Of a stretch of 64,000 bases of DNA, positions 15,029 to 62,149 are shown one piece after another (the first letter of the stretch is position 1; every line of letters starts with the position of its first letter). The notes beneath the pieces are model-generated. The model did no database searches. It saw only the letters and a program-made list of their open reading frames with translations, and was not told the DNA's origin. The translations under genes were made by a program, and so were the position numbers. Source of the stretch: a bacterium (lineage in GTDB: Bacteria > SZUA-182 > DTGQ01); the NCBI GenBank assembly GCA_040755755.1, contig JBFLZW010000041.1:2102-66101 (forward strand), read 5' to 3'.

Positions 15029-16693
<1,665 letters not shown>

Positions 16694-23927: not shown

Positions 23928-24158
23928 GGCGGGTATCATTCGAGGTCATCACGGGGATGGGAAGATTACAAAATTGTTCATCCTCAATTACTCTTTGGTA
24001 ATGAAAGAAAAAACCGCGATACAGAATTGTAATGGCTTACATGATACTCTCCCCAACCTCCCCCAAAATCCTTGATCCTTCCTTCCTGGTACAAAATTTG
24101 CCCTAAGAGCAGGGAGAATATCCGAGTAATAAGATTCCACTCACGGGGAGGAAAACCT

Positions 24159-24773
24159 ATGACTGCAATTTTCCAGGGGGGAAGTGTATTTACCTATAGT
24201 ATTTTCGCTATCTCAATAATTGCTTTGGGCTTGTTTTGCGAGCGGATTAATTACCTGTACTTTCGCTTGAAATTAAATGCTGATGATACCCTTCAGAGAA
24301 TTGTGCTCCTGCTTGAAAAAACAAATATCCGGGGCGCATTGGAAGAGTGTGTCAAGATTGAAAAGCATCCTCTTGGCCGGACCCTGAAGGCAGGGCTCCT
24401 CAGATTGAATAAAAAAGACAAGGAGATCGAAATGGCCATGGAAGAGAAAATCCTGAGAGAAATCCCGATCATCAGGGCGGGAATAAACTATATGGCTCTA
24501 TTCGCAATCATATCAATTCTCCTTGGATTTTTGGGGACGATAATGGGTTTAATAACTTTCCTCAAGGGAATGGGTCAGGAAAGCGGTACGCAGATAATTA
24601 TGGGGGGAATATCTCAGGCAATGCTCAATATTGCCCTGGGCTTGATTGTAGCCATACCATGCCTGATTGGGTATTTTATTCTCAATAACCGGGGAAATTA
24701 CCTCATTGGTCAATTGAAGGAAAAATCACTGGGCCTTTTCAATGCTCTTTCTACCCTGAGGAGCAATGCCTGA
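24159..24773 (+). CDS. MotA/TolQ/ExbB-family proton channel protein (orphan, with no ExbD/TolR/MotB partner adjacent)
   Basis: It has the TolQ-like 3-TM topology and the conserved TM2/TM3 motifs (GFLGTIMGL; ALGLIVAIPCLIGY). The ATG at 24159 is preceded by GGGGAGGA. The ORF track starts earlier, at 24072. Confidence 0.8.
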   Translation: MTAIFQGGSVFTYSIFAISIIALGLFCERINYLYFRLKLNADDTLQRIVLLLEKTNIRGALEECVKIEKHPLGRTLKAGLLRLNKKDKEIEMAMEEKILREIPIIRAGINYMALFAIISILLGFLGTIMGLITFLKGMGQESGTQIIMGGISQAMLNIALGLIVAIPCLIGYFILNNRGNYLIGQLKEKSLGLFNALSTLRSNA

Positions 24774-24830
24774 TAAGAAGGTAAAAATAAGGTTTAAATA
24801 CACGTGCATCAGAACAGTGAAGAGGAAAAG

Positions 24831-27041
24831 ATGAATCTGAAGACCGAACCGGAACAAAGCATATTGACAAATGAGTTCATCCTGAATAGTCCTCTTGTAC
24901 CAGCATGGGAAGGCAAAGAACCAGGGTTGCAGCAGGAGGATGGAAAATTCCTGGAATTTTCGATTTTCGAGGGGAAGGATTTTTTCAGGAGTGAGCGGTT
25001 CTCCAAGGGAAAGATAATCGTAGGCAAAAGCGAAGAAGCAGACATCATTCTCCAGGGGCGAAATATTTTTGATATCCACGCTTTTTTTTACCGGAACGGT
25101 GATCAGGTTTTTGTATCGGATGGAGATCTTGGCAGCGGTGTTATAGTAAATGGCAGATTTGTATCCTCCCGAGCATTAAATCCTCATGATTTAGTATTCA
25201 TAGGTCCATATACGATCAAAGTTCAGCTAGGCAAAGCTTACAGTCAGCCTTCAGGAGACGATTTTCCGGATACGAATACCGTGACAGTTCAGGCTCCGGA
25301 AGAAGATGATTCCCCGGTGACGGAGATGGATACGGATACGGTTACAACAGGCGAATATAGCAAAAATGAGCCTGATGGAATGCAGGGGATCATCCGATCA
25401 CTGGAAAATGAACCTGACCAGGTTTTTCACGACTATGAGAAGCCGGATTTGACCATACCCCCTGATGTCATGAAAGAGCAGGTTTCACCCGGAATTGAAT
25501 TATCGTGGCATGAGGAGGTAGATTTTTCCCCGACGGGTGAAGATCTGCAAATTTACTCTGATGGAGAATATCCCGATCCAGAGGTTCAAAGAATTGAAGG
25601 CAATAATGTGCCGGAAGAGGATGACCTATCGGATTTTCAATTTGAGCCGTTATTTGCTGATCCTCATCCTGATTCTCAACACGAATTGCAAGAGAAGAAA
25701 AATGAGCCGGAAGACGATTCCGGGAGCGAGAGCTATTACGATGATGCTATCTTATTAACCTTTCCTAGGGCTGAGGACAATGATCAGTCCCATTCTGAGC
25801 CGGTAGTTTTGGAAGTAGAATCGCATGAAGATCCGCGAGTGCCTCACATATTGGAATTAGATGTCAGTGCACAGGCAGAGGCTGACATCCTATCGCAGAG
25901 CAAAAGCAATGAGGTTAGACTAGATGTTCCCAATTTCCCCTTTCTGGATGAGGAGGGTGAAAATAGCCATCACCCCCACCCAACCTCCCCCCTCAAGGGG
26001 GAGGGGAAAGATGGATGTCCTCAGCAAAGATGGGGAACATCTGAGAGTGGACCGGGAACAACAATCCATTCCGAAAATCAGGAAAATCCCCAGGAGGTAT
26101 TAAAGCGGATCATCGATCAAATTTCGAATTTTTCAAGTACCGCTACTGATATACCTGCTATCCCCCAAGGGGAAAGGGACCGGACATTTACTCATCAGGA
26201 AGAGAATGATAAGTATCATGAGGACACTGAGAACCATGCCCTGGAATTTTCAACCCAGAGAGTCCAGGAACCTGGAGTCAGTGCTGGATGGACAGGGATC
26301 GAGGATCGGATTCAACCTCCCGGCATAGGATCGGAAATCGACATCCCGGCTAACCAGGTGAATAGGGAGAATACGTCCCAAGGTTCAGATATCGAACAGG
26401 TAAGAACTGGAATTCGGAGCTTTTTCCCAAAGATCCTTAGTTCAATTGAAATGGTAAAAAGAAAAGTTCAGAGTTTAACTTGTGGCCACATACTTCACAA
26501 GAAACCGGATGAAGCGGGTGATGAAGATGAGGAGATGGAGATAGAGGGAAGGGAGGATTTTGATCAGCCACCGCAACTATTGGCCAGCCAGAGTGCAGGA
26601 GAAGAAGATGATGAGGAGGAGGAAATCCTCCCCAGGATCATATTTCCGATAAAAGAAAGCCTTATGCAGTATCAGCAGCAGGAAACCATTCTGGATCCTG
26701 GCGAGGTAGTGCTTGAAGTATTGAAGTGCCGGGGAGATGATGTAGTCGATATGTGCTTTTTAACCAGGAAGGAGAAATACAGCAGTTTGAATGAATTTGG
26801 CCGGTTTTATGTGGCTGAAAACAAGGATCAGGAAACCTTTTACTTTTATTTTACCGATCAATTCAAGGGCAAAATCCAGTTCAGTGACAGTTATTCTATA
26901 GACATTGAAAGATTATCCATCATTGAAGAGGTATACCGGAAAAAAGGAAGGGTTTACCGGTGTCTGCTCCCGATGAACGGAGTAGTATCCCTGTATGACG
27001 GCAGCTATGACTATTACCTGCGACTCGTCAAGCCCGCTTAA
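24831..27041 (+). CDS. FHA-domain protein with a long acidic disordered linker and an uncharacterised C-terminal domain
   Basis: An N-terminal FHA-like fold is present (IIVGKSEEADIILQGRNIFDIHAFFYRNGDQVFVSDGDLGSGVIVNGRFV...LVFIGPYTIKV). It is followed by about 400 aa of D/E-rich sequence and then a roughly 140-aa conserved-looking C-terminal domain. The ORF track start at 24804 is a GTG. The ATG at 24831 has a GAGGAAAAG Shine-Dalgarno sequence. Confidence 0.7.
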   Translation: MNLKTEPEQSILTNEFILNSPLVPAWEGKEPGLQQEDGKFLEFSIFEGKDFFRSERFSKGKIIVGKSEEADIILQGRNIFDIHAFFYRNGDQVFVSDGDLGSGVIVNGRFVSSRALNPHDLVFIGPYTIKVQLGKAYSQPSGDDFPDTNTVTVQAPEEDDSPVTEMDTDTVTTGEYSKNEPDGMQGIIRSLENEPDQVFHDYEKPDLTIPPDVMKEQVSPGIELSWHEEVDFSPTGEDLQIYSDGEYPDPEVQRIEGNNVPEEDDLSDFQFEPLFADPHPDSQHELQEKKNEPEDDSGSESYYDDAILLTFPRAEDNDQSHSEPVVLEVESHEDPRVPHILELDVSAQAEADILSQSKSNEVRLDVPNFPFLDEEGENSHHPHPTSPLKGEGKDGCPQQRWGTSESGPGTTIHSENQENPQEVLKRIIDQISNFSSTATDIPAIPQGERDRTFTHQEENDKYHEDTENHALEFSTQRVQEPGVSAGWTGIEDRIQPPGIGSEIDIPANQVNRENTSQGSDIEQVRTGIRSFFPKILSSIEMVKRKVQSLTCGHILHKKPDEAGDEDEEMEIEGREDFDQPPQLLASQSAGEEDDEEEEILPRIIFPIKESLMQYQQQETILDPGEVVLEVLKCRGDDVVDMCFLTRKEKYSSLNEFGRFYVAENKDQETFYFYFTDQFKGKIQFSDSYSIDIERLSIIEEVYRKKGRVYRCLLPMNGVVSLYDGSYDYYLRLVKPA
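25922..26043 (+). mobile_element. MITE-like repeat copy (family with AGATGTTCCCCATCT termini) embedded in-frame in the FHA-protein CDS
   Basis: It shares about 120 bp of collinear similarity with the intergenic copy at 38984..39129. The shared parts are the left end AGATGTTCCCAAT, the CATCACCCCCACCCA...CCTCAAGGGGGAGG core and the right end AAGATGGGGAACATCT. Confidence 0.55.
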
Positions 27042-28054: not shown

Positions 28055-29335
28055 TTATTTCGGCATCCAGCCCAGGGTGAGGCCAAAGGTTATATCATCG
28101 GGTTGAAGCGGTATCAGGTCATTCCGTACAAAGGTCTTTCCATTCCATTGATATTGGCGTAAGAAGTGCTGATCGTCCGAGGCCACGTAAATTTCGTTCT
28201 TACCATCGTGATCGAGGTCAGAAATGAGGGTGGCATGCTCAAAGCCGCTGGATTGGTCGTCGATCAGGGACTTCTCCCAATTCCCCTGCTCCTTTTGCCG
28301 TAACACCCAGATACCGGATTGCATGGTCGAAGCCACGATGTCAATAGACCCGTCTCCATCCACATCGGCAGCCGTGAGATAGCGGCAGAGCATATCCGGC
28401 AGGTCTGCAATGATCTGTCCGCTCAACTGCCCGTTCACAAACCGGTATTGCTTGATCTTGGCAGTGTCCACAAGGCCCGGCTGTCCCTGGACAGTGCCCA
28501 TTTCGCCCTCGATAGCTGCAAACAGGTCAGGATACCCGGAGCCGGTGACATCGGCGGCCAGGATCTCTTTAACGTGACGGTTGGGGAATTCCTCAACAAT
28601 ATCGCTCAGGAATCGCTCTCCATCGAACCGGTACATGATGATCTTTCCCGGTTGGGGGCTTCCGTCAAGACGATTGGGAGCACTGGGTGTGGAAAAGAAT
28701 TCCTTCTTCCCATCGTGGTTAATGTCCCCGATTTCGATTTCATGAACGAAAGTGTCCGGGGTCCGGCCAAGCTCCGTGATAACCCAGGCTCCATCTTTCC
28801 ACTGAAGCACGGCCACAATACCCTGGTCATGGGTGGCGATAACAAGATCATCTCCACCGTCCCCCGTTACATCGCCAGTTTCTACATCCCTCAATCGGTT
28901 CTGTTCCCCCCCAAAAGTGGGGTTCCAGAGCAAAGTCCCTTTCCACTGGCCTGCCTCGTTCCGGTGCCACAGTTTGAGGGCGGCGGCATTGCCGGAAATA
29001 GTTAAAATTCCCGGTTGTCCTGATGGCGGATTGAACCAGAGAGCTTTATGAAAAACATTACTTTCCGGATCTTCCAAAAGAGTGCTTTTCCATCCATCCG
29101 GCGTCCTTTTGACCATCGTCAGTTTGGCGGCACCGGGGATGGACCGTGCTTCCCCGTCCGGTTGTTGTTCTGTCCGAAACTGCGCCTGAGCCAGAAAAAG
29201 TACAGCAGAGGAGGATGCGGCATGGCTCAGGCCATTTCCTGAGGGAGCATGCGCCGCCTTCAGGCATCCGGTAATACCACCCAGCAAGGCTGCCAGAAGT
29301 ATGAAGAAGCAAAAATTCCTGTACCTGTATTTCAT
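28055..29335 (-). CDS. FG-GAP repeat (beta-propeller) lipoprotein
   Basis: A lipobox is present (LLGGITGC). Repeated FG-GAP/Ca-binding-like motifs follow (DVTGDGGDDLV, ADVTGSGYPDLF, ADVDGDGSIDIV, SDLDHDGKNEIYV). The ORF track start at 29422 would overlap the upstream gene, so MKYRYRN at 29335 was preferred. Confidence 0.7.
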   Translation of the reverse strand: MKYRYRNFCFFILLAALLGGITGCLKAAHAPSGNGLSHAASSSAVLFLAQAQFRTEQQPDGEARSIPGAAKLTMVKRTPDGWKSTLLEDPESNVFHKALWFNPPSGQPGILTISGNAAALKLWHRNEAGQWKGTLLWNPTFGGEQNRLRDVETGDVTGDGGDDLVIATHDQGIVAVLQWKDGAWVITELGRTPDTFVHEIEIGDINHDGKKEFFSTPSAPNRLDGSPQPGKIIMYRFDGERFLSDIVEEFPNRHVKEILAADVTGSGYPDLFAAIEGEMGTVQGQPGLVDTAKIKQYRFVNGQLSGQIIADLPDMLCRYLTAADVDGDGSIDIVASTMQSGIWVLRQKEQGNWEKSLIDDQSSGFEHATLISDLDHDGKNEIYVASDDQHFLRQYQWNGKTFVRNDLIPLQPDDITFGLTLGWMPK

Positions 29336-29336
29336 A

Positions 29337-29780
29337 TTATTTGACTCCAGATGGGGGATTTTTGATATAAATGACCTCAAAAGGGGCTTCATGAAGAGAA
29401 GTCGAAATACGCTTCTGGGCAATGATCGTAGATACCTGCTTTTCTTTGGCCAGGCGCAGAATATTATCGATATACGGTCCCTTGATAACGATAAATTCGG
29501 TCTCCAGACCCTTCTCCCGTGCTTTTTGCTGAATGCTGTGCAGGGCTTTCAGAATGACTTCGCCCCGCTTCTCTTTAATCTCTTCCCGGAGCTGATCGAG
29601 CACCTTTCGACCGAGAAAGCTTACATCTTCCATCATCCGGCTGACTTTGCCCGACATATTGGCCTCCCGGATGTCAAGGACAATCAGCCGGGCTTTCTTC
29701 TGGAGAGCCATCTCGATAGCATAGCTTGCAATTTTATCCGAAATTTGGGTGGCTGAAAATACCACCATGATTGTTTCCAT
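29337..29780 (-). CDS. universal stress protein (UspA)-like
   Basis: 147 aa with an alpha/beta USP-like pattern (MVVFSAT...ARLIVLDI...STIIAQKR). The match is weak. Confidence 0.45.
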   Translation of the reverse strand: METIMVVFSATQISDKIASYAIEMALQKKARLIVLDIREANMSGKVSRMMEDVSFLGRKVLDQLREEIKEKRGEVILKALHSIQQKAREKGLETEFIVIKGPYIDNILRLAKEKQVSTIIAQKRISTSLHEAPFEVIYIKNPPSGVK

Positions 29781-29804: not shown

Positions 29805-31244
29805 TTACAGGGATACTCCCACCAGAGGCCAATACCATTTTACCAGAATTAAAAAAATGATCCAGCAGCAAATGTGCAGAATTATTCCTGCCTTGATAAT
29901 ATCCCTGATGTCGTAATACCCTGATGAATAGGCAATAGCATTGGCAGGAGAACCCATGGGCAGAATAAAGGGCAAACCGGCAGGGACGGCTACACCGAAA
30001 ACCATGGCCAGGGGATTGATGGCATTCGCACGACAAATGCTGAACCCGATAGGAAGAATGATGGCCACGCAGGCTACATTGCTGATCCCTTCCGTAAGCA
30101 GGAAGGAGAACAGGGAGAAGATGCCGATTGTCCAGAGAGGCGCTAAGTGGACCCTGCTCAGCAATTGATGGGCAATCCAGCGGGCCGCCCCGGTCTGATC
30201 AACAGCTTTGGCGATAACGATGGCCCCTCCGTACATCAGGATTACTCCCCAGTTAACATAGCTGTTGACATCATCCCAGGTAATGACCTTGGCTATAAAC
30301 AGGGTTACAGCCGAAAAAAGTGAGACCATAGCCATCTCAAACCAGTGATTGAAAATAATCCAGATCAGGATGGTGGTAGTAAGAATGACAAGAACCTTTT
30401 TTTCCGTTAAAGTCATCGGGCCGATTTCCCGTAATTCTTCTTCCAGCTTCTTCCTGGCAGGTCTCACATCGGCTATATCGAGATTGAAGCCGAAAATCAA
30501 AATAGCATAGGCCACAATGAGCGTTATTCCGACCAGAGGAAGAGCTACCCTGGACCATCCCCAGAAGCTCAGGGATTGATGGAAAGCCTCCTGTAACATG
30601 CCGACAGCCAGAGGTGCCCGCGCTCCTCCGAGAAGGGTCCCCACTCCGCCGATTACTGATCCCCAGGACATGGCCAGAAACAGGCCGGTTCCATATTGAC
30701 TCTCACGGGGCTGGGAATCCAGACTCAGGGCAATGGTTCCCACTACGGGAAACATCAGGGCGGCGACAGCATGCTCCGGTATGATCAAGGCCATGAAGCC
30801 GCAGGTAATGAGAATACCCAAAATTAAAATGCGGGGGCTGTGGCTGAAGTGGGTGAGGATGGCGAGAGCCGTACGCTTGCTCAACCCGGATTTTATGGTG
30901 GCAGAAGCCATAATAAAAGCGCCGAGAATGAAAAATACCGCACTGTTGCCAAAAAAGGAGTAAGCCTGCTCGGCTTTCATGACCCGCAAGAGAGGAATCA
31001 GCGCAATAACCAGCAAGCCGGTAACCGAAAGGGGAAGTGCATTGGTAACCCACAAAATCAAGGCCAGGGAAAAAATTCCCAGTGAGCGTTGTCCGGCAGT
31101 TGAGAGGTTGGCCGGGCTGGGGAGAACAAGGAAAATAAGAAGGGTGAAAAAGGCCAGGAAAAGAAAAGCGAGCTCTCGTCTGCTCCCTGCGACAGTATCT
31201 CTGGAGTTATTGCCTCCTGATGTATGGGTATGGTTTTTTACCAT
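29805..31244 (-). CDS. anion/ion permease of the ArsB/NhaD/DASS/CitMHS superfamily
   Basis: 479 aa with about 12 or more TM helices and an internally repeated hairpin-like organisation typical of this transporter fold. Confidence 0.6.
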   Translation of the reverse strand: MVKNHTHTSGGNNSRDTVAGSRRELAFLFLAFFTLLIFLVLPSPANLSTAGQRSLGIFSLALILWVTNALPLSVTGLLVIALIPLLRVMKAEQAYSFFGNSAVFFILGAFIMASATIKSGLSKRTALAILTHFSHSPRILILGILITCGFMALIIPEHAVAALMFPVVGTIALSLDSQPRESQYGTGLFLAMSWGSVIGGVGTLLGGARAPLAVGMLQEAFHQSLSFWGWSRVALPLVGITLIVAYAILIFGFNLDIADVRPARKKLEEELREIGPMTLTEKKVLVILTTTILIWIIFNHWFEMAMVSLFSAVTLFIAKVITWDDVNSYVNWGVILMYGGAIVIAKAVDQTGAARWIAHQLLSRVHLAPLWTIGIFSLFSFLLTEGISNVACVAIILPIGFSICRANAINPLAMVFGVAVPAGLPFILPMGSPANAIAYSSGYYDIRDIIKAGIILHICCWIIFLILVKWYWPLVGVSL

Positions 31245-31388: not shown

Positions 31389-34300
31389 TCAGGGGTGGCA
31401 TTCCTGGCAGGACTTTTTGGACGTAGTCATAGGGCCGGTCATGTCGTGCATTCCATTTCTCTCTGGGTAGGTATATACTTTTTTGGGCAGAGAGTGGCGG
31501 TTTCGATGGCAGGCCATGCAATTTATACTCGCCTGTTTGGATACTCCCTTCTGACCATGCTGAATATCCTGGTGGCACCGGAAACATTCAATCGATTGTT
31601 TATTAACATGAACAGTGTGGATGAGAGGGGTATCTCCGGCCAGCTTGTTTTTAGAATTGATATGGCAGGTGAAGCATCGTTCTCTGGGAACCTGACCCTC
31701 TCCCTGGGTGACTTTGATGTGGCAGTCGGTGCAGAGAAGATTTTCGTTATTAGCCAGAAATTTTTCATGATTGAGCTCAACTCCTGCAAAATTTATCGAA
31801 ATACCGGGTAAAGAGTGACAGGTAATGCACCTTCCAACCCCGGTATCCTTTTCCTGTCTTCCTTTAAAGTGGCAGTTAAAGCAGATCGTTTCGGTTACCC
31901 GTACATGTTTGCCCTGGACGATTTGTGAATGGCAGGTAATGCACCCAAGATGCTTGCCGCGGGGAGAAGTTTTTAAATGCTGCTCATGGCTGAATCGGAT
32001 ACCATGCTTGAACAGCTTTTCTTCCTGGATTTCAGCCCATTGATGACATCCCTGCTGCAAACAGGCCTGATCACTGACCCTGGATTTGGGTAAAATGGAA
32101 TAGGTTCTCGCCAGAGCCCTGATGACAAGGCTGAATTTATTACGATCTTCCTGGTTCCCGGAGGTGCTGAGATGTTCATAGTGGCAGGTTACACAACTTA
32201 CCGCCTGATGAGAAGAAGTCTGCCAGGACTCGGTATAGGGGCGCATATAGTGGCAGCGGTTGCAAAATCCCGGGTAATTAATGATTTTTTGGGAATAGAG
32301 GGGAATCAAAATTCCGGGGAAAAAAGCCAGTAATCCCAGGCAGGCAAGGGCTTTCTTCCAGTGGACCTTGGAGCGGGAGGATGTATCTCCTTCCATCCAA
32401 CTTGCGGACGGGGAAAGGAACAGGAAAAGGCCCAGAAAACTGATCAGGTAGAGGGAGTAGGCCGACAGGTCGCTTATGCATCTTTGGTGGTTAACCGTGA
32501 AAAAATTGTAGGCCAATAGTCCAAGAGTAATGGTTGTCAGATACAGATAAAGTTCCCTGCCCAATTGAACTGCCAGGAACATATAAAGCACAGCCGAGAG
32601 AAGGAGAAGCTTCTGAGAAACTTCCAGGTTCCCGGAAAAGAAAGCCATGATGCAGCACGTCAAAGCCACGAGTGTAGCTACATCGAAGATTGGCTGTGTC
32701 CGGTCCCGCCCTTGTTTCCTTTTTATGAAATAGCCAATCAGACAAAGAAAGAAAGGATCAAAGAAAAAATACTGCAAGCGCATGGTGGGCAATAATCCAG
32801 GCACCTCTCGCAAGCCAAAATAGAAGCATATGGAGAAAAAGGCAGCGGCCAGAAAAGAGTGCTCATAGCAGGGCGATATCCAGCTCAAAGCCAGATAGAA
32901 AAACAGATAGACCAGAAGGGAAAGAAAAAGCCAGTATGTTTTTCCTGCACCCGGATTGATTAATGCCAGAAGAATAATCGCTGATACCCAAAGATGTCCG
33001 GCATTTTTAAACATACTTTTTCCCCACGGAAGAAACGGCCTAGCCCATAAGCTGCATCCATAGAAAAGCACGACCAGCGGGAGGGCGGCAGTAAGTATCA
33101 TATTTCCGGGAATTCCTCCTGTCAGAAGCCCTTTATACCAGACTGCGGCTAAAACGAGGCAGGCTGCGCCGATGTGCCAGACCTTGTTCGTTTGACAGGC
33201 CATAAACAGGTGAGCGGCAAATAAGATGCAACTCAGAAATAGACCGGATGGAAGGTCTTGGGAATACAGCCAGGCGAGGACCGAAATCAGGCTTAAAAGA
33301 TTCCCTGCCCAGTAAGATACTTTGCTCAATCTGGGAAACTGTTTATCGGCAAAACTATAAGCCAGATAATGGAGAAAAACACACATTGACAAGCCGTAGA
33401 GTGAGTCAGGTGAAGCATAATTCAAGGTTACCAGAAAAAATCCACTCAGAGTCAGCCATCCGAAATACCAGACTTGTGCCAGAGGATAGCCTTTCTGCTG
33501 TGATCGCATACCCAGTCCCAGCAGGAGAAAACCAGGGAGTAAAAAGAGGAGATTAGTCCCGCCGGAAGAGATAAGCTCTTTGGGAATCAAGTAATAGTAT
33601 ATGAATGCCACAACCAGCACGACGGGGAAAAGGAACTTCTGGTCCTCGGTGATCAGAAAGAATACCAGCATGGAAAAAAGATAGCCAAAACCCAGCATGC
33701 AGATGAAGTCCAGGGAATAGCTGGACAGTTGCAAAGGAATGAGGAAAGCGAGGAGGACCGTGAGAAATTGGACCTCATAGATTGTTTTGCTGAAAACAAG
33801 CCGCCCCATCTGCTGACCCAGGTGCCCAAGCCAGAAAAACAGCCAGATTAAAGGGATAGTGAGGATCAGATACCAACTGATTTCATAGACCGGGGAGTGA
33901 ATCAATAATCCCTCGAAAAAGGCGATATTCATGAAAAGGCCAAACAGGTAGGTGGAAATGCTTTGCTCCCCTTCAGTCTCAAAGTTATTCTGCCAGCCTG
34001 CAAGAAAGTACAGAAAAGCATAAGCCAGCCCGATTACCAGGTAAAAAAGGCCCACCGGAAAGCCATTCCAGGCAAAAAGAAAAAGGTAACCCAGGGCGAA
34101 AAGGTAAGAAATTACCAGGAATTTGTTCTGCTTTCGTGGCAGGTCCTTACCTGCGGTTCGAGATAACCTTGTGTGCAAAACATGCAAGCGGTAAAAATGG
34201 AAGGAGTAAAGAAATCCGATAATCATGAGCAAATTTACCCGTGAGCAATAATACCAGAAAGCGAGTGCGAGCCCGATAAATCCGATAACAAAAGCAGGAT

Positions 34301-35315
34301 GCCAGAATTTTTCCCCTTCCTCCCGCCTCTGCTGGTAAACGCCTGCATACATGAAGATCATGAATAGAACAATCAGATATAATCCGTAAGCCTGATGGGG
34401 AATGACCGGGATTTGATGAAGAAAAAAAACCAGAGAAAAGGAAAGACATCCCAGAGAGAGGTATAACCAGCCAGCCAGCCCCTGCTGTTTCAGTTTCGTC
34501 CGCCGAGTGAGCTGCCAGTAGTAAAAAAAGCTGTAAAAGCCAAGTGTACAGGCAGCAATACACGGATGCTTCTCCAGATATTCTCGGCATTGGATCAGCA
34601 CAGTGCCGATAAAAAAAAAGCCCATCAGACAGGCGGCATTATCCAGCGGATGGAGAGCCTCTTCAGCAAAGACTTTCAATCTCGTAAGCCCGAGCGATAT
34701 TCCTGACAGCAGCAGAGCGAGGGGAACAGAAAGCAGGGGCATAACCAGAGAGAAAGACGGCACCAGCCGGAACGCGGAGAGAAAGCAGGAGAAAATCAGT
34801 AACAAAGCAGCAGGATACATAAATATCCTGCCCAGTAACCGGGCAAAGGCAAAGCTCAGCACAGAAAAAAGCATGAGGATACCACTGCCGAGCAGGGGAT
34901 TGTCAATCAGAAACCCACGGCTGGCAACCAGCAGGCAAACGCCCGCCAGCAGGATCAAACCGTGGCTGAGCTGCCTCCATCCTCCCTTTTCCATCAATCC
35001 GATAGTGACTCGTTCTTCTCTACTTTCCATAACCGCCCAGACTTCACCAAAGGTACCAGGGTGCGCACATAAGACAATTTCCGCATAATTCATGCCGAAA
35101 AAGCGGGCTGAATGTTGAATTGGTGGAAGGAGCGGGGCGCAATGAGTAATTAGTTGATTTGTTGAGGCTTGCTTAATAGAAAGGCAAAAATGTGAGGAAA
35201 TGTCCTGAAAAAGGAAAAGGGAAAGGGCAGGTACCCATTTTTCATACTCCCGGCTCTCTTGAGCAAGGATAATCAAGTGGTACCAAAATTGGCAGGTGTA
35301 AGTCATACTATGCAT
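31389..35315 (-). CDS. giant polytopic membrane protein fused to a C-terminal multihaem c-type cytochrome domain
   Basis: About 950 aa of densely packed TM helices precede a roughly 330-aa C-terminal region carrying 10 CxxCH motifs (CNRCH, CVTCH, CITCH, CFNCH, CITCH, CTDCH, CFTCH, CFRCH, CMACH, CQECH). There is also one possible Cx4CH (CLQQGCH). The true start is uncertain: the longest ORF begins at 35315, and alternative ATGs lie at 35030 and 34991. None has a clear Shine-Dalgarno sequence. Confidence 0.75.
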   Translation of the reverse strand: MHSMTYTCQFWYHLIILAQESREYEKWVPALSLFLFQDISSHFCLSIKQASTNQLITHCAPLLPPIQHSARFFGMNYAEIVLCAHPGTFGEVWAVMESREERVTIGLMEKGGWRQLSHGLILLAGVCLLVASRGFLIDNPLLGSGILMLFSVLSFAFARLLGRIFMYPAALLLIFSCFLSAFRLVPSFSLVMPLLSVPLALLLSGISLGLTRLKVFAEEALHPLDNAACLMGFFFIGTVLIQCREYLEKHPCIAACTLGFYSFFYYWQLTRRTKLKQQGLAGWLYLSLGCLSFSLVFFLHQIPVIPHQAYGLYLIVLFMIFMYAGVYQQRREEGEKFWHPAFVIGFIGLALAFWYYCSRVNLLMIIGFLYSFHFYRLHVLHTRLSRTAGKDLPRKQNKFLVISYLFALGYLFLFAWNGFPVGLFYLVIGLAYAFLYFLAGWQNNFETEGEQSISTYLFGLFMNIAFFEGLLIHSPVYEISWYLILTIPLIWLFFWLGHLGQQMGRLVFSKTIYEVQFLTVLLAFLIPLQLSSYSLDFICMLGFGYLFSMLVFFLITEDQKFLFPVVLVVAFIYYYLIPKELISSGGTNLLFLLPGFLLLGLGMRSQQKGYPLAQVWYFGWLTLSGFFLVTLNYASPDSLYGLSMCVFLHYLAYSFADKQFPRLSKVSYWAGNLLSLISVLAWLYSQDLPSGLFLSCILFAAHLFMACQTNKVWHIGAACLVLAAVWYKGLLTGGIPGNMILTAALPLVVLFYGCSLWARPFLPWGKSMFKNAGHLWVSAIILLALINPGAGKTYWLFLSLLVYLFFYLALSWISPCYEHSFLAAAFFSICFYFGLREVPGLLPTMRLQYFFFDPFFLCLIGYFIKRKQGRDRTQPIFDVATLVALTCCIMAFFSGNLEVSQKLLLLSAVLYMFLAVQLGRELYLYLTTITLGLLAYNFFTVNHQRCISDLSAYSLYLISFLGLFLFLSPSASWMEGDTSSRSKVHWKKALACLGLLAFFPGILIPLYSQKIINYPGFCNRCHYMRPYTESWQTSSHQAVSCVTCHYEHLSTSGNQEDRNKFSLVIRALARTYSILPKSRVSDQACLQQGCHQWAEIQEEKLFKHGIRFSHEQHLKTSPRGKHLGCITCHSQIVQGKHVRVTETICFNCHFKGRQEKDTGVGRCITCHSLPGISINFAGVELNHEKFLANNENLLCTDCHIKVTQGEGQVPRERCFTCHINSKNKLAGDTPLIHTVHVNKQSIECFRCHQDIQHGQKGVSKQASINCMACHRNRHSLPKKVYTYPERNGMHDMTGPMTTSKKSCQECHP

Positions 35316-35588: not shown

Positions 35589-35891
35589 ATGGCAAGAAAA
35601 GCATATCCTCCAGACCTTACGAGCATTGAATTGGTTGATACTATGGGATTAGTTCTGATGGTGGTTGTGCCCGCTGCCAATATTCAAGATCGGGATGGAG
35701 CAAAGTTAGTGCTCGAAAAGGTTCTTGGACGATTCCCTCGGCTAAAACTGATCTGGGCCGATGGTGGTTATTCTGGAAAGTTGATTGATTGGGTCAGGGA
35801 ACAATGCCAGTGGGTCTTGGAAATAGTCAAACGATCTGATCAGTCCAAAGCGGCTGCCGCCGTACAGGATGATAATTGGCCGTGTAGTTAG
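35589..35891 (+). pseudogene. IS5-family (DDE_Tnp_1) transposase C-terminal fragment (decayed IS remnant)
   Basis: 100-aa ORF ending ...LKLIWADGGYSGKLIDWVREQCQWVLEIVKR, which is the C-terminal DDE region of IS5-type transposases. The N-terminal two-thirds is missing. Downstream sequence continues the transposase tail out of frame. Confidence 0.6.
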
Positions 35892-36010: not shown

Positions 36011-36044
36011 AAAAAAAGAGCGGCACTTTGAAAAGCGCCGCTCT
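36011..36044 (-). terminator. rho-independent terminator of the cold-shock gene
   Basis: On the minus strand the stem AGAGCGGC...GCCGCTCT is followed by a T7 run. Confidence 0.6.
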
Positions 36045-36071
36045 CGGTAATTCAGGGAACAATCAGCCCAG

Positions 36072-36275
36072 TTAGCAGGGGCGTACGTTCACAGCCTGGG
36101 GTCCTTTGGGACCTTGCTGAATATCGAATTCTACCAGTTGGTTTTCCTGAATACTCTTGAAGCCTGATCCCGAGATTGCTGAATAATGTACAAAAACGTC
36201 TTTGTTTTCACCTGAAACCGTGATGAAGCCAAAGCCTTTCTGATCATTAAACCACTTTACTCGTCCTTGAGCCAT
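36072..36275 (-). CDS. cspA: cold-shock protein (CspA family)
   Basis: The sequence [18 protein letters not shown]...VFVHYSAI is present. The ATG is preceded by AAGGAGGG. A long AT-rich 5' leader lies upstream. Confidence 0.95.
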
Positions 36276-36692: not shown

Positions 36693-36731
36693 CCCCCTCA
36701 CCCCGACCCTCTCCCCAAAGGGGCGAGGGAG
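36693..36731 (+). repeat. GC-rich REP-like hairpin repeat (CCCTCACCCCGACCCTCTCCCCAAAGGGGCGAGGG)
   Basis: It contains the palindromic core CCCTCTCCCC-AAA-GGGGCGAGGG. An inverted near-copy lies at 62107..62149, and a related core sits inside the MITE-like elements. Confidence 0.6.
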
Positions 36732-36991
36732 AAAAACACTACTCCTCAGCTTGCCAATATGAATTCCACCTCTGCGCCTCTGCGTCTCTGCGGGAGATCA
36801 TTCTTCCATGTCTCATTGTACTAACCGGCCATGATTACAAAATGCCACTTTGAAATGAGCAGGATTTATTCATATTATACGATAAATAGATGTCAGATTG
36901 AGGTAGGGAGTTCCCGCCACAGGGGCTCCCTGAAGGTAACAGGGGATGTCGGGTGGGGGTGATTTTTGTCGAGAGGAAGGTTATCGGAAAA

Positions 36992-38983: not shown

Positions 38984-39129
38984 TAAAGATGTTCCCCATC
39001 TTCCTTATTCTTAACGAGGATGGTAAAAATAACCATCACCCCCACCCAGCCTCCCCTGCCACAGGGGCTCCCTGCCTCAAGGGGGAGGAGTGGAAGGGAT
39101 GTTCCCATCAAAGAAGGGGAACATCTGAA
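38984..39129 (+). mobile_element. MITE-like element with terminal inverted repeats AGATGTTCCCCATCT / AGATGGGGAACATCT
   Basis: It is a ~145-bp intergenic element between htpX and fmt, with perfect 15-bp terminal inverted repeats and a GC-rich core (CATCACCCCCACCCAGCCTCCCC...CCTCAAGGGGGAGG). Related copies lie at 25922..26043 and, degenerate and inverted, at ~36886..36995. Confidence 0.6.
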
Positions 39130-40179: not shown

Positions 40180-40257
40180 CTCTGTGTACCTCTGTGCCTC
40201 TGTGTCTCTGTGGTGTCCTTTGTCTTTGTCTCTGTTTTTGCCTTTGTCTTTACTCCC
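40180..40257 (-). repeat. dispersed repeat family with (CACAGAG)3-4 heptamer core and an A-rich flank; copy between def and fmt
   Basis: The sequence GACACCACAGAGACACAGAGGCACAGAG plus an A-rich ACAAAG flank is present. Near-identical copies lie at 43824..43882 and 59897..59955. A shorter copy lies at 6161..6184 and a CTCTGCG variant at 36769..36793. Confidence 0.7.
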
Positions 40258-43823: not shown

Positions 43824-43882
43824 AAATAAATAAAATACAAATACCAATACCAACGACACCACAGAGGCACAGAGACACAGAG
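43824..43882 (+). repeat. copy of the (CACAGAG)n repeat family between uppP and ftsK
   Basis: The sequence AAATAAATAAAATACAAATACCAATACCAACGACACCACAGAGGCACAGAGACACAGAG is present. Confidence 0.7.
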
Positions 43883-43933
43883 ATACCCGGAGAAAAGACA
43901 GGGAGTAATGTATTCATAGACAGCTCCATAACC

Positions 43934-44998: not shown

Positions 44999-47900
44999 AT
45001 GCGCGAAAAATCTGAGGGCAGGAAAAAGATATTGTGTCTTGGGATTGACATCGGATCGATCAGCGTCGACTTTGCCCTCGTTAACCAGGATCGTGAGATT
45101 ATCAGGACTTCCTATCACCGGGTCAAAGGACAGCCTATTCTCAAGACCCTTGAAGTGCTGGAGAAAGAGTTTGCCGATTTTCTGGCCGAAGATTCCATCA
45201 GCCTGTCGTTTACCGGGACCGGCGGACTGATCCTGAGCCATCTGCTGGATACGTTCTTTATCAATGAAATCATCGCCCAGATGAAAGCGGTCATCCTGCT
45301 TCATCCCGAGGCCAGAACCATTATCGAAATCGGCGGCGAGGATTCCAAACTCATTCTGCTCGACTACCAGCAGTCCTCACAATCTCTGGTCCTGAAGGAT
45401 TTTGCCATGAATACCATGTGCGCTGCGGGTACCGGCTCTTTTCTCGACCAGCAGGCTTCGCGGCTCGGCATCTCGATCGAGGAAGAGTTCGGCGAACTGG
45501 CCATGAAGTCGAAAAACCCGGCCCGTATTGCCGGGCGGTGCAGCGTTTTTGCCAAATCGGATATGATCCACCTCCAGCAGGAGGCCACCCCGGACTATGA
45601 CATCATTGCCGGGCTGTGCATGGCTATGGCCCGAAACTTCAGGGGAAGCATCGGCAAGGGGAAGGAGTTCCAGAAGCCCATTCTCTTTCAGGGAGGAGTT
45701 GCCGCCAATAAGGGCATGGTGAGGGCGTTTGAGACGCTTTTCAAGCTCGCTCCGGGAGAGTTGATCATCCCGAAGTACTATAACTGCATGGGCGCTATCG
45801 GAGCTGCCCTGGTCGCGCTCGAAACCCCGAAATTCATCAGGGGAAGGAATGTCCTGAAAACGATAGCCGATTATTTGAACCAGGACCGCTATCAGGAATC
45901 CCACCTGCCGCCGCTGCACGCTGGCAAGCCCCCGTCTTCGGGAAAACGCCCTGCGGATGCGGGAAAACCATCCGGGGCAGGGAACGGCCAGAGCGGGAGA
46001 GACGCAAAGCCGATTCCGGCCTTTCTGGGAATCGACGTCGGCTCGATCAGTACCAATGTGGTAGTGATCGACAGCAACAAAAAGGTCCTGGCAAAAAGAT
46101 ACCTGATGACTGCCGGACGCCCGATCGAAGCGGTCCGCACGGGGCTTGATGAAGTCGGGCGGGAGCTCCAGGACCGGGTCAGAATCTGCGGAGTGGGCAC
46201 CACCGGATCGGGAAGATACCTGATCGGGGATTTCGTGGGGGCCGATATCATCAAAAACGAGATCACCGCCCAGGCCAAGGCCGCGGCAGCCATTGACCGG
46301 CAGGTCGATACTATCTTCGAAATCGGCGGCCAGGATTCCAAGTACATCAGCCTCGATCAGGGTGCGGTCGTGGATTTCGAGATGAATAAGGTGTGCGCTG
46401 CCGGAACCGGCTCTTTCCTGGAAGAGCAGGCGGAAAAGATCGGCATCAATATCAAGGAGGAGTTCGGAAACCTGGCCCTCTGTGCTTCCGCTCCCGTAAG
46501 GATGGGGGAGCGCTGTACCGTATTCATGGAGTCTGACCTTGTCCACCATCAGCAGAGCGGTGCCGCCAAGGAGAACCTGGTGGCCGGTCTCAGCTATTCG
46601 ATCGTTCATAACTACCTGAACCGCGTGGTGGCCGGACGCAGGGTTGGAAACCGGATATTCTTCCAGGGCGGAGTGGCAGCCAATAAAGGCGTGGTCGCTG
46701 CCTTCGGGCAGGTCCTGCAAAAGCCGGTGATCGTTCCCGAACACCACGAAGTTACCGGGGCCATCGGCGTGGCCCTGATCGCCCAGGAGGAGCAGACCTG
46801 GACCCAGAGCAAATTCCGGGGATTTGATCTGAGCCACCGCCGCTATGAAATCGAGAGCTTTGAATGCGCAGGATGCGCCAATCACTGCCAGATTAAAAAG
46901 GTCGTGCTCGATCAGGACCGGCCGCTTTTCTACGGCAGCCGGTGTGACCGCTACGATGAAAAAAAAGGAGAAAAACTCTCCGCCCATCCCCTCGATCTGT
47001 TTGCCTTCCGGTCACAGGAGCTTCACCGGCAGTACCTGACTCCAGCCGGGGATTCATCTTCTTCCAGCGCGCCTCGCACAAAGATAGGTATCCCCTTATG
47101 CCTGTTCTTTCACGAGTGGCTTCCCTTCTGGCGGACCTTCTTTACGGCCCTGGGGCTTGAAGTCATCCTCTCTCAGGCAACGAACAAGGAGATCATCAAC
47201 CAGGGGGTACAGGCGGCTGTGGACGATACCTGCTTTCCCATCAAGGTGGCCTATGGACATATCCATAACCTCCTCCGGCAAAAGGTCGATTATCTCTTTT
47301 TGCCCAGCATCATCAACATGCCAACCGAGCAGAACGGTATCCATGACAGTTTCAACTGTCCCTACGTCCAGACGATTCCCTACACCGCCGCCGCGGCTAT
47401 CAATATCGAACAGAGCGGGACAAAGCTTCTGCGGCCTGTGGTATACCTGCGAAGAGGACTGAAATCTATCCGCAAAAGCCTCATCCCCCTTGGCCGAAGC
47501 CTGGGAAAATCCGCGGCGGACACCGGAAAAGCCATTGACCGGGCTTACGCTGCCCAAAGCTCCTTCCATGCCGCCCTCCAAAAAAAGGGAGAAGAGATTA
47601 TCAGCACACTCCCGGAACAGGAGAAGGCAATGGTCCTGATCAGCCGGCCCTACAATGGCTGCGATTTCGGGCTGAATCTGGAGATTCCCAGAATTTTTCG
47701 CGAAATGGGCTTTCTGATCATTCCGATGGACTTTCTGCCGCTCCACCAGAACCAGATCGCCGAAAACTGGCCCAATATGTACTGGCGCTACGGGCAAAGA
47801 ATCCTGAGCGCTGCCCGGTTTATCCGAACACGGGCAAACTTGTATGCCATCTACCTGACGAATTTCAGCTGCGGCCCTGATTCGTTCATCACCCAGTTTT

Positions 47901-49291
47901 TCCAGCACACGATGAGTGGAAAGCCCTACCTGCAGATCGAGGTTGACGAGCACAGCGCCGGTGCCGGAATAATCACCCGCTGTGAAGCCTTTGTCGATAG
48001 TCTGCGAAGCCGGCAGCGGCAGCAGGCTGTGGCCGGTGATATGCCTGAAACCGTGATGTGCCGGACGGTCTCTTCAAATTCATGCCGGAAGGATACCTAT
48101 TCTCACCGCAAGCTCTACATTCCCCCCATGGCCGGACATGCCCATGCCCTGTGTGCCGCCTTCAGATCCCAGGGAATAATGGCCGAGGTCATACCGGAGT
48201 CCGACGAGCAGACCCTGCAGTATGGCCGGATGTACACCTCCGGCAAGGAGTGCTTTCCCTGCCTGGTAACAACCGGCGACATGGTAAAAATCACCCGTTC
48301 ATCCCAGTTCGATCCTGAAAAGAGCGCCTTTCTCATGCCTTCCGGCGATGGTCCCTGCCGGTTCGGGCAGTACTATCAGCTGCACCGGCTGGTCCTCGAC
48401 CGCCTGGGTCTTCCCGAAGTGCCAATCTATTCTCCGAGTCAGGGGGAAACTTTTTACCGTGAGCTGGGGATCATGGGGAGAAAGTTTATTCGTCTTGCCT
48501 GGCAGGGGATCGTTATTACCGACTACCTCGAAAAGTGGCTTCTGCAAAACCGGCCCTATGAAAGCTCTCCCGGGGAGGCAGACCGGATTTATAACCAATG
48601 CCTGTCCCTGCTCTGCCAGACTATCGAAACTCAAGGGGCTGCCTTTCCGGTTATCGGGCAGATCCTGCGGATCCTCGGCGAATTTCGCCGGGAGCCGAAA
48701 ACACAGCGGCCAATCATCGGTATTGTGGGCGAGATTTTTGTCAGGTCCAACCGCTTCAGTAACAACGACCTGATCCGCAGAATCGAAGCCCTCGGCGGGG
48801 AGGTCTGGATGCCGCCAATTACCGAGTGGTTCCATTATATCAATTACACCAGCAAGATTCACAGCCTGGTCAATCAGAATCTGAAAAACCTGCTTTCGAC
48901 CATGATCCGGGATATTCTGCAAAAGAAGGACGAGCGCAAAATTCACCGCCTGCTCTGCCCGGCCATTCTCGACGGAAAAGACCCTTCGATCGAGCAGCTC
49001 CTCGATAACAGCCGCCCCTACCTGCATTCCTCCTTCGAGGGTGAGGCCATCCTGAGCATTGGCAAGGCCATAGATTATGCCGCTAAAAACATGGACGGAT
49101 TGATCAATGTCATGCCCTTCACCTGCATGCCGGGAACCATCGCTTCCACGATCATGAAACGAGTGCGGATGGACTACCGCGATTTTCCTTTCCTGAACCT
49201 GGCGTATGACGGCCTCGAGCAAACCTCCATCAAGACCCGGCTGGAGGCATTCCTGTACCAGGCCCGGCAATTCCAGGAAAAGGCGCGGTAA
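44999..49291 (+). CDS. CoA-substrate-specific enzyme activase fusion (two BadF/BadG/BcrA/BcrD-type ATPase domains plus a 2-hydroxyacyl-CoA-dehydratase-like DUF2229 domain)
   Basis: Two ASKHA ATPase repeats are present (LGIDIGSISVDFAL...CAAGTGSFL; LGIDVGSISTNVVV...CAAGTGSFL), followed by a Cys-containing dehydratase-like C-terminal half. The protein is 1430 aa. Confidence 0.85.
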   Translation: MREKSEGRKKILCLGIDIGSISVDFALVNQDREIIRTSYHRVKGQPILKTLEVLEKEFADFLAEDSISLSFTGTGGLILSHLLDTFFINEIIAQMKAVILLHPEARTIIEIGGEDSKLILLDYQQSSQSLVLKDFAMNTMCAAGTGSFLDQQASRLGISIEEEFGELAMKSKNPARIAGRCSVFAKSDMIHLQQEATPDYDIIAGLCMAMARNFRGSIGKGKEFQKPILFQGGVAANKGMVRAFETLFKLAPGELIIPKYYNCMGAIGAALVALETPKFIRGRNVLKTIADYLNQDRYQESHLPPLHAGKPPSSGKRPADAGKPSGAGNGQSGRDAKPIPAFLGIDVGSISTNVVVIDSNKKVLAKRYLMTAGRPIEAVRTGLDEVGRELQDRVRICGVGTTGSGRYLIGDFVGADIIKNEITAQAKAAAAIDRQVDTIFEIGGQDSKYISLDQGAVVDFEMNKVCAAGTGSFLEEQAEKIGINIKEEFGNLALCASAPVRMGERCTVFMESDLVHHQQSGAAKENLVAGLSYSIVHNYLNRVVAGRRVGNRIFFQGGVAANKGVVAAFGQVLQKPVIVPEHHEVTGAIGVALIAQEEQTWTQSKFRGFDLSHRRYEIESFECAGCANHCQIKKVVLDQDRPLFYGSRCDRYDEKKGEKLSAHPLDLFAFRSQELHRQYLTPAGDSSSSSAPRTKIGIPLCLFFHEWLPFWRTFFTALGLEVILSQATNKEIINQGVQAAVDDTCFPIKVAYGHIHNLLRQKVDYLFLPSIINMPTEQNGIHDSFNCPYVQTIPYTAAAAINIEQSGTKLLRPVVYLRRGLKSIRKSLIPLGRSLGKSAADTGKAIDRAYAAQSSFHAALQKKGEEIISTLPEQEKAMVLISRPYNGCDFGLNLEIPRIFREMGFLIIPMDFLPLHQNQIAENWPNMYWRYGQRILSAARFIRTRANLYAIYLTNFSCGPDSFITQFFQHTMSGKPYLQIEVDEHSAGAGIITRCEAFVDSLRSRQRQQAVAGDMPETVMCRTVSSNSCRKDTYSHRKLYIPPMAGHAHALCAAFRSQGIMAEVIPESDEQTLQYGRMYTSGKECFPCLVTTGDMVKITRSSQFDPEKSAFLMPSGDGPCRFGQYYQLHRLVLDRLGLPEVPIYSPSQGETFYRELGIMGRKFIRLAWQGIVITDYLEKWLLQNRPYESSPGEADRIYNQCLSLLCQTIETQGAAFPVIGQILRILGEFRREPKTQRPIIGIVGEIFVRSNRFSNNDLIRRIEALGGEVWMPPITEWFHYINYTSKIHSLVNQNLKNLLSTMIRDILQKKDERKIHRLLCPAILDGKDPSIEQLLDNSRPYLHSSFEGEAILSIGKAIDYAAKNMDGLINVMPFTCMPGTIASTIMKRVRMDYRDFPFLNLAYDGLEQTSIKTRLEAFLYQARQFQEKAR

Positions 49292-59896: not shown

Positions 59897-59955
59897 AAAA
59901 TACGAAATACAAAATGAAAATACAAAGGACACCACAGAGACACAGAGGCACAGAG
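59897..59955 (+). repeat. copy of the (CACAGAG)n repeat family between wzc and rfbD
   Basis: The sequence AAAATACGAAATACAAAATGAAAATACAAAGGACACCACAGAGACACAGAGGCACAGAG is present. Confidence 0.7.
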
Positions 59956-59981
59956 AAAAGCGAAGATAGATCAGGGAGATC

Positions 59982-62106: not shown

Positions 62107-62149
62107 CTCCCTCGCCCCTTGGGGGAGAGGGTTGGGGTGAGGGGGATGG
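62107..62149 (-). repeat. second copy of the GC-rich REP-like hairpin repeat, between rfbB and rfbA
   Basis: The sequence CTCCCTCGCCCCTTGGGGGAGAGGGTTGGGGTGAGGGGGATGG is the reverse complement of the 36693 copy, with a few substitutions. Confidence 0.6.

Follow-up and report, generated by a model that had tools for sequence, protein, structure and literature searches.

A Giant Membrane-Embedded Multiheme Cytochrome From Uncultivated Bacteria and Its Possible Role as an Electron Gateway

The Gene and Its Product

The stretch of DNA analyzed here, in its full length of 64,000 nucleotides referred to as the window (contig JBFLZW010000041.1 of assembly GCA_040755755.1, positions 2,102 to 66,101), encodes on its minus strand a protein of 1213 amino acyl residues in which a large membrane module is followed by a multiheme cytochrome c domain. 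Membrane-anchored multiheme cytochromes linked to quinols are of a known kind, and what is new is the membrane domain of 32 helices, for which there is no known natural relative. Position numbers refer to the window and residue numbers to the 1213-residue protein, unless the maximal open reading frame (ORF) is named. The gene and the predicted parts of its product are as follows.

31389..35030, minus strand: multiheme cytochrome gene (1213 residues plus stop codon), product identical to the NCBI-annotated protein P0001 of the metagenome-assembled genome (MAG)
32415..34985, minus strand: 32-helix repeat membrane module (residues 16-872), eight units of ~105 residues with four transmembrane (TM) helices each and very short loops
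32277..32372, minus strand: anchor helix TM33 (residues 887-918), N-terminus in and C-terminus out, directly before heme 1
31857..32273, minus strand: NrfH/NapC-like proximal heme block (residues 920-1058), CxxCH at 923, 946, 1030, and 1050, Cx4CH at 990
31392..31856, minus strand: distal six-heme extension (residues 1059-1213), CxxCH at 1068, 1100, 1119, 1149, 1171, and 1208

A first-pass annotation, made from the letters of the window alone, had placed an ORF of about 1200-1300 residues at 31389-35315, and the maximal minus-strand ORF at these positions indeed comprises 1308 residues. Its first 95 codons are unconserved among homologs, and since P0001 and all close homologs start at the methionine in position 96 of this ORF (MESREE/MEQG), these codons are considered read-through and the true gene is assigned to 31389..35030. 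Fused full-length homologs with 63-72% identity (P0002-P0004) are present in independent NCBI, JGI, ENA, and Logan assemblies, and distant full-length fused relatives share 16-31% identity. P0005 and P0006 are shorter yet complete forms that stop after the first five heme motifs and possess the proximal block alone. In relatives encoded by two genes, it is the membrane module that is interrupted, a gene for the N-terminal half being followed by an overlapping gene for the C-terminal half and the cytochrome, and no split between membrane part and cytochrome was found among the split relatives. Because fused proteins recur in independent assemblies and among close as well as distant relatives, the fusion is judged, on comparative grounds, to be one real and intact gene.

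The first-pass annotation had itself listed what would speak against such a gene, i.e., a frameshift or assembly artefact, a CxxCH-rich segment that is non-coding or in another frame in related genomes, or homologs that are always divided into membrane and cytochrome genes. Fused forms recur, the segment is coding and in frame in the relatives, and the natural breaks lie within the module. An artefactual joining of a membrane gene to a cytochrome gene through an assembly or frameshift error, which the unusual length and the 95 spurious N-terminal codons of the maximal ORF might have suggested, is refuted by these comparative data and can be set aside almost completely.

The Membrane Module

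An AlphaFold2 model of residues 1-920, calculated from a 47-sequence alignment, is confident (predicted local distance difference test 87.8, predicted template modeling score 0.76) and comprises 33 long helices connected by loops of 1-14 residues, so that an initial estimate of about 30 TM helices was about right. With a cytoplasmic N-terminus taken as start and successive loops placed on alternating sides of the membrane, 35 lysine and arginine residues fall into inside loops versus 7 into outside loops, as the positive-inside rule would have it. The polypeptide is predicted to make 33 passes through the membrane, from an inside N-terminus to an outside C-terminus; on this charge distribution, the last helix would run from in to out and the heme domain would be periplasmic, in agreement with the periplasm-facing domain first proposed. 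Attachment of c-type heme requires a periplasmic location. TM33 corresponds to the one anchor helix found in NapC/NirT/NrfH cytochromes and in the single-TM relatives described below.

Profile self-comparison of the module yields several off-diagonal alignments at 98-99% probability. The 4-TM units U1, U2, U6, and U7 match one another over ~100 columns (94-98%), units U4 and U5 match these four over two helices only, and units U3 and U8 have diverged (about 1-10% against U1 and U2). From these profiles, the module seems to be built of diverged 4-TM repeats, and in the structural model it takes the form of a two-layer array of TM hairpins that is solenoid- or toroid-like.

Across the family, the residues conserved in the module are nearly all Pro, Gly, Tyr, Phe, or Leu. 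Among polar positions, only His23 (66%), position 234 (His 52%, Gln here), Glu419 (61%), and His679 (70%) are conserved in part, and the three His positions are all situated near cytoplasmic helix ends. The residue conservation of the module did not reveal the His pattern of two b-type hemes. As polar residues are so rarely conserved and the three His are all on the cytoplasmic side, a transmembrane wire of two b-hemes fits this module poorly.

The module has no sequence match in Pfam, NCBIfam, or the PDB, and in the case of Pfam this holds for all 47 members even at E ≤ 5. A fold comparison, which covered the PDB only, returned no NrfD/PsrC, NarI, GT-C, or transporter fold. NrfD/PsrC, GT-C, DUF2339, and transporter folds were therefore rejected as candidates for the membrane part, which has no detectable similarity to them in sequence or structure. 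The suggestion in the first-pass annotation that the cytochrome might be attached to an enzyme or transporter finds no support in a module with almost no conserved polar residues, and its impression of an unusual architecture is borne out by a membrane part without known family or natural fold match in these databases. To judge from the model and these searches, the module resembles no known natural membrane fold and defines a new, very rare protein family.

In P0003 and P0004, a low-complexity insert of 45-70 residues (for example SQESGVRSQESEVRIQESGVR repeats) is present in the cytoplasmic loop between TM10 and TM11 (alignment columns ~300-370), which indicates that this loop tolerates large insertions.

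The Cytochrome Domain

As the first-pass annotation had counted, the protein carries 10 CxxCH motifs and one Cx4CH candidate (CLQQGCH), all within its last 291 residues. The Cx4CH motif is invariant in 6/6 close homologs and in 19/19 aligned full-length relatives, and is absent in only 3 of the 29 tabulated heme-bearing members. In view of this conservation across the family, it is very probably an eleventh heme site.

The proximal block, which may correspond to the tetraheme core with four CxxCH of NapC/NirT/NrfH, contains four CxxCH plus the inserted, conserved Cx4CH. Its heme 1 motif CNRCHYM (CxxCHxM) is formed by C923, C926, H927, and M929, which are invariant in 19 full-length relatives. 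In the alignment with NrfH of D. vulgaris (2j7a_C), FCNRCHYMRPYTESWQTSSHQAVSCVTCHYEH of this protein stands against FCTSCHIMNPVGVTHKLSGHANISCNDCHAPH of NrfH, and CNRCHYM aligns with the FCTSCHIM motif of 2j7a_C. In NrfH, the Met-ligated heme adjoins the menaquinol site. The anchor is arranged as in NrfH, with TM33 at residues 887-918 and the first CxxCH at 923, yet 32 further helices precede it.

Pfam matches are found on the C-terminus only (c7, c3, MtrC domain II/IV, and sub-threshold NapC/NirT), with nothing on the first ~900 residues. The distal extension is c3/c7-like and resembles MtrC domain II (PF14522, 3e-12; PF22113, 9.7e-9; PF02085; PF14537), and weak sequence matches in the PDB are to MtrC and ActA-type cytochromes. 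PF03264, the NapC/NirT family, matches 27 of the 47 family members (best E = 9.5e-12). The heme 1 motif, anchor, and profile matches taken together, the heme domain appears to be NapC/NirT/NrfH-like.

Longer relatives (P0007, P0009, P0014, P0025, P0039-41, P0050, P0053, and P0055) contain 11 CxxCH plus the Cx4CH and a helical C-terminal tail of ~100 residues with a conserved DGSxG(V/A)HNxxY motif; this tail is absent from the window protein. The same additional CxxCH and tail are encoded at loci L016-L021 and at many of the single-TM loci among L022-L092. The His of this motif could serve as a distal heme ligand, and the tail may resemble the C-terminal helices of NrfA/HAO-type enzymes.

Distribution of the Family

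An exhaustive HMMER search of 1.84 billion representative proteins with a profile of the membrane part alone detected 51 clusters. Every full-length or C-half member of this family has a multiheme C-terminus with 3-16 CxxCH and, in most cases, a Cx4CH too. The repeat module extends over ~870 residues and is joined to the cytochrome, the window protein having served as seed. All module-bearing members originate from MAGs or metagenomes, assigned to unclassified “bacterium,” Fidelibacterota, Chloroflexota, or Pseudomonadota, and databases list them under no more specific names than “cytochrome c3 family protein,” “NapC/NirT family cytochrome c,” and the like. Among 241 million records, the clade of the window protein (window clade) was encountered on two JGI metagenome contigs only, and full-text literature searches found no description of the architecture.

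The cytochrome part is distributed differently. One genome per species (185,579 species) was scanned for relatives of residues ~890-1212 with a 9-sequence alignment, and at least 571 stretches encode such relatives. Among the best 80 of these, 71 encode proteins with no more than one or two TM helices (406-899 residues, 8-21 CxxCH, many phyla), and the giant module is present in only 9, a small number for 185,579 species genomes. These numbers indicate that the cytochrome is a member of a common, uncharacterized family and that the module is a rare addition to it. The single-anchor relatives are 34-44% identical to residues ~890-1212 and possess the same order of hemes including the Cx4CH, which makes them the true homologs of the cytochrome part. 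They occur in Gemmatimonadota, Planctomycetota, Eisenbacteria, Acidobacteriota, and other MAGs, where they are annotated as “cytochrome c3 family” or “NapC/NirT family.” Whereas the window protein has 33 TM helices, they have no more than one or two, and many of them possess further hemes and the helical tail of ~100 residues that the window protein lacks.

Two further observations concern variant forms. P0044 (557 residues) consists of the C-terminal half of the module with two CxxCH, followed by a CCG/HdrB-like sequence, and would result from a frameshift in the assembly or from natural fusion of the membrane protein to HdrB. The split N-terminal halves P0015, P0016, P0020, P0026, P0045, and P0049 begin with a soluble extension of ~70-110 residues, predicted to be cytoplasmic, that the fused forms do not have.

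Hdr and Flx Genes Adjoin the Module Outside the Window Clade

Outside the window clade, genes for HdrC and HdrB adjoin the module at all 11 loci with readable flanks (L008, L011, L012, L016-L021, L093, and L094). At L008, L016, and L018-L021, the giant gene is directly followed by hdrC and hdrB, and at L016 and L018-L021 these are succeeded by hdrA, an mvhD/flxD gene, two genes for Fe-S proteins, and an flxA-like gene for a FAD/NAD-binding protein. The contigs of L017 and L012 end soon after hdrC. At L011, hdrC and hdrB are accompanied by genes for an HdrA-like flavoprotein with a 2Fe-2S thioredoxin-like domain and for a NuoF-like protein. At L093 and L094, the split form of the module is preceded by genes for a 389-residue multiheme cytochrome, HdrC, and HdrB. 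The complete order at L093 (5408-17573) is 389-residue cytochrome, HdrC, HdrB, N-terminal half, C-terminal half with an 11-CxxCH cytochrome, a protein with an EB_dh domain, and another set of HdrC, HdrB, and HdrA; upstream of this operon, a sigma-54 two-component system is encoded.

No HdrC, HdrB, or HdrA was found at any of the 71 single-anchor loci in flanks of up to 8 kb, a region in which ORF calling gave spurious ORFs at the high-GC loci, and DASS, universal stress protein (Usp), and FG-GAP neighbors, which are typical of the window clade (see below), were not found there either. Other multiheme genes do lie near the single-TM relatives. Because Hdr genes are absent from all 71 single-anchor loci, the link to Hdr seems to follow the membrane module and not the cytochrome. 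The inspection of orthologs and their neighbors that the first-pass annotation had proposed has thus been informative, since module-bearing relatives outside the window clade are located together with genes for cytoplasmic Fe-S proteins of the HdrC/HdrB type. The window clade does not possess an adjacent hdrC-hdrB(-hdrA-flxDCBA) set and has a DASS-Usp-FG-GAP cluster instead.

The Neighborhood in the Window Clade

Around the cytochrome gene of the window, the following features are encountered.

29805..31244, minus strand: DASS-family anion:Na+ symporter (PF00939, 1.2e-68; TIGR00785, 7.7e-80), 144 base pairs downstream of the cytochrome gene
29337..29780, minus strand: Usp (PF00582), third gene of the cluster
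28055..29335, minus strand: FG-GAP beta-propeller protein (PF13517, 1.2e-18) with lipoprotein-type signal (…LLGGITGC), fourth gene of the cluster
35589..35891, plus strand: fragment of an IS5-type DDE_Tnp_1 transposase (PF01609, 7.4e-10, partial match), upstream and incidental

For the FG-GAP gene, the likely start is an ATG at 29335, the listed ORF starting with a TTG at 29422. The DASS gene follows the cytochrome gene directly and on the same strand at 6/6 independent loci with downstream sequence (the window, L001, L003, L006, L007, and L097), and the Usp and FG-GAP genes come next at the 5/5 loci that are long enough, the contig of L007 ending after the DASS gene. A terminator scan found no terminator-like site between the cytochrome gene and the DASS gene. 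Upstream of the cytochrome gene, the genes vary between the loci of the window clade, and the IS5 fragment has no counterpart at the corresponding place in L001, L003, L006, or L097. The window is chromosomal, with the housekeeping genes FtsK, LolA, Fmt, ComEC, and GroEL (15029-16657, minus strand), and the GC content of the region is ordinary. GroEL does not place the host in a named lineage, since identities of 85% or more are reached only with proteins of unclassified “bacterium” MAGs, and Nitrospinota and Methylomirabilales, the closest named taxa, share about 80%.

The first-pass annotation had described the gene as monocistronic, flanked by an IS5 remnant and repeat elements on one side and an anion permease gene on the other, and hence of accessory origin. 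The IS5 fragment and the permease are indeed there, and the upstream repeat elements belong to families scattered over the whole window. A monocistronic gene is not supported, given the conserved order of four genes and a gap of 144 base pairs devoid of any terminator-like site; neither is an accessory origin, given the conserved cluster, the chromosomal setting, the ordinary GC content, and the genome-wide character of the repeats.

Those repeats form two dispersed families of short intergenic elements, a CTCTGTG-rich element and a C/G-rich palindromic element (CCCCCTCACCCCGACCCTCTCCCCAAAGGGGCGAGGGAG), with copies at 6160-6192, 36769-36801, 40189-40221, 43852-43897, and 59918-59978; and at 36693-36731, 62107-62145, 25929-26044, and 38995-39128. 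Both resemble genome-wide elements of the repetitive extragenic palindrome or miniature inverted-repeat transposable element type and are not specific to the cytochrome locus. A full-length DDE_Tnp_1 transposase gene (L004, 4511-5251) lies ~2 kb upstream of the gene for the homolog P0004 in another metagenome; transposases upstream of both genes may be a coincidence or may mark a region of recurrent insertion. Convergent to the FG-GAP gene, genes for MotA/ExbB-family and FHA/YscD-like proteins are present in the window (24072-27041, plus strand), in L001 (17412-20100), and in L097 (15970-18640), so that in the closest relatives synteny extends beyond the four-gene cluster. A cold-shock gene (CspA-like, 67 residues; 36072-36275, minus strand) is situated upstream of the IS fragment, and the only strong hairpin of the region that resembles an intrinsic terminator (36016-36045) is found at this gene. 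A 1430-residue double ATPase of the BcrAD/BadFG type with DUF2229, as in activases of CoA enzymes, is encoded at 44999-49291 (plus strand) and suggests an anaerobic lifestyle of the host. Scans of the region for Rfam families, tRNAs, and tandem repeats gave nothing relevant.

Discussion

Membrane multiheme cytochromes connect the metabolism of anaerobes to minerals, electrodes, syntrophic partners, and periplasmic reductases. We consider it somewhat more probable than not that the protein described here is an inner-membrane electron gateway, in which an NrfH-like heme 1 exchanges electrons with quinones, a chain of hemes leads into the periplasm, and the module provides a link to the cytoplasmic side. 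By analogy with NrfH and CymA, electron exchange between heme 1 and menaquinol/menaquinone would take place at the periplasmic surface of the membrane, and the 11-heme chain would relay electrons from or to partners in the periplasm. Coupling of the cytochrome to the cytoplasmic side would be the task of the repeat module, in most clades by way of HdrCB. Such a coupling is suggested by the presence of HdrC/HdrB beside the module outside the window clade and by their absence at the 71 single-anchor relatives. CCG proteins, to which HdrB belongs, pass electrons to membrane acceptors, as in HdrDE, DsrMK, TmcB, GlpC, and type-E Sdh. Most likely, coupling would occur through a quinone-mediated redox loop, where the cytoplasmic partner or the bulk quinone pool reduces or oxidizes quinone in or at the module and the NrfH-like heme 1 carries out the converse quinone reaction on the outer side of the membrane. 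The protein of the window clade would most probably work with the bulk quinone pool, as a gateway from quinol to a periplasmic acceptor (or the reverse) without neighboring Hdr, and the conserved FG-GAP lipoprotein is a candidate for its periplasmic partner there. The idea of a quinol-oxidizing or transmembrane conduit, already voiced in the first-pass annotation, is thereby strengthened by the invariant NrfH-type CxxCHxM and by the Hdr operons outside the window clade; the window clade itself, without adjacent Hdr, does not share in the latter.

Several points weigh against an electron gateway of this kind. No Hdr gene is present within the 64 kb of the window, so that conclusions based on Hdr may not transfer to the window clade. 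With neither of the two relevant profiles does the window protein reach the curated cut-off (PF03264, 19.6 versus 24.1 bits; TIGR03153 for NrfH, 30.1 versus 134.2), and no quinone site is identifiable in the repeat module. Hydrophobic profiles can inflate scores in repeat detection; the sharp contrast between unit pairs (97% versus about 1%), an internal control for such a bias, argues that the repeat signal is specific.

The closest known systems share parts of this organization. NrfH, NapC, NirT, and CymA (PF03264; 2j7a) likewise possess an anchor with the N-terminus in and the C-terminus out, a CxxCHxM heme 1 immediately after it, a close second CxxCH, and a periplasmic heme domain, but they have one TM helix and 4 hemes in about 160-200 residues, compared with 33 TM helices and 11 heme motifs including the Cx4CH here. 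No NrfA, Nap, or Nir partner is encoded near the window gene. ImcH, CbcL, and CbcBA of Geobacter are inner-membrane multiheme cytochromes that are believed to connect the quinone pool with carriers in the periplasm, and ImcH has a NapC/NirT-like region (PMC6295460, PMC4251993). ImcH is characterized by 3 TM helices, a membrane-adjacent CX3CH, and 5-9 CxxCH (6 in proteins of 495-519 residues), and CbcL by a 6-TM b-type domain of the HydC/FdnI type with conserved His (PMC6295460). With its 33 TM helices, no Cx3CH, and a canonical CxxCH as first motif, the present protein is not an ImcH. Cytochromes b of the CbcL/HydC-FdnI or NarI/HdrE/DsrM type were also rejected, since no more than three His positions show partial conservation, each of them on the cytoplasmic side, and neither a Pfam match nor a fold of this kind was found.

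HdrDE, DsrMK(JOP), TmcABCD, and HmcABCDEF follow the same three-compartment logic as the relatives with Hdr genes, in which HdrB, a CCG Fe-S protein, and HdrC are encoded next to a subunit in the membrane and a multiheme cytochrome in the periplasm. Their membrane subunit is a diheme cytochrome b of the NarI/HdrE type with 5-6 TM helices, whereas the counterpart here is a repeat domain of 32 TM helices that lacks this His pattern and is continuous with the cytochrome c, and the window clade differs from them further in having no adjacent Hdr genes. As to shape, designed circular tandem-repeat proteins or toroids (PDB 7rdr, 6xr1) are among the closest systems, although these are soluble and artificial. 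The c-rings of ATP synthases offer an analogy, but they are assembled from several individual subunits that carry a conserved carboxylate, compared with a single chain of 16 hairpins here, and no repeated carboxylate of this kind was seen among the conserved residues of the module.

With HdrC and HdrB following or preceding the module at every locus examined outside the window clade, it may be asked whether the module itself is a transmembrane wire, in which one or more b-hemes or another metal cofactor on conserved His would pass electrons directly from a cytoplasmic partner to the periplasmic c-hemes, as a functional equivalent of the HdrE, DsrM, TmcC, HmcE, and NarI-type subunits. In HdrDE, DsrMK, and TmcBC, a CCG protein is combined with a cytochrome b of the membrane, a pairing that the gene order would mirror; the partly conserved His at residues 23 (66%), 234 (52%), and 679 (70%) might be taken as ligands. 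No pattern for b-hemes is encoded, however, which makes a quinone-mediated loop more likely, and we regard such a wire as improbable.

Equally doubtful is a mainly architectural role, in which the module would be a two-layer wall or closed ring of hairpins that fences in a patch of lipid or quinone or organizes a supercomplex, electron transfer being left wholly to the NrfH-like cytochrome and quinone. AlphaFold may over-regularize repeat proteins, and a purely structural role leaves the tight link to HdrCB unexplained. Very improbable indeed is a transporter or channel, acting for example with the adjacent DASS permease, to which the cytochrome would be a regulatory or accessory appendage: in the window clade, the cytochrome gene is invariably followed by that of the DASS symporter, and a ring-like assembly of helices could in principle enclose a pore, but there is no match to a transporter fold or family, almost no polar or charged residue within the membrane is conserved, and in other clades the neighbors are redox proteins and not transporters.

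The electron gateway thus being preferred, a more far-reaching proposal can be made tentatively, with the odds against it. The module would be a single-chain transmembrane toroid of α-hairpins that encloses or lines a private compartment for lipid and quinone, and thereby a new membrane fold; together with the NrfH-like cytochrome and, in most clades, HdrCBA-FlxDCBA, it would constitute an as yet unrecognized class of respiratory complex. The gateways known to us (NrfH, CymA, ImcH, CbcL, Tmc, Hmc, and Dsr) are all anchored by one to a few helices or rely on a small cytochrome b. If this proposal were true, flavin-based electron bifurcation or NADH oxidation in the cytoplasm would be coupled, with no cytochrome b involved, to electron transfer in the periplasm or outside the cell, and structural biology might find here a natural example of a single-chain transmembrane repeat toroid. 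For the uncultivated lineages that encode this family, our analysis points to an undescribed link of low-potential redox chemistry in the cytoplasm to the outside of the membrane.

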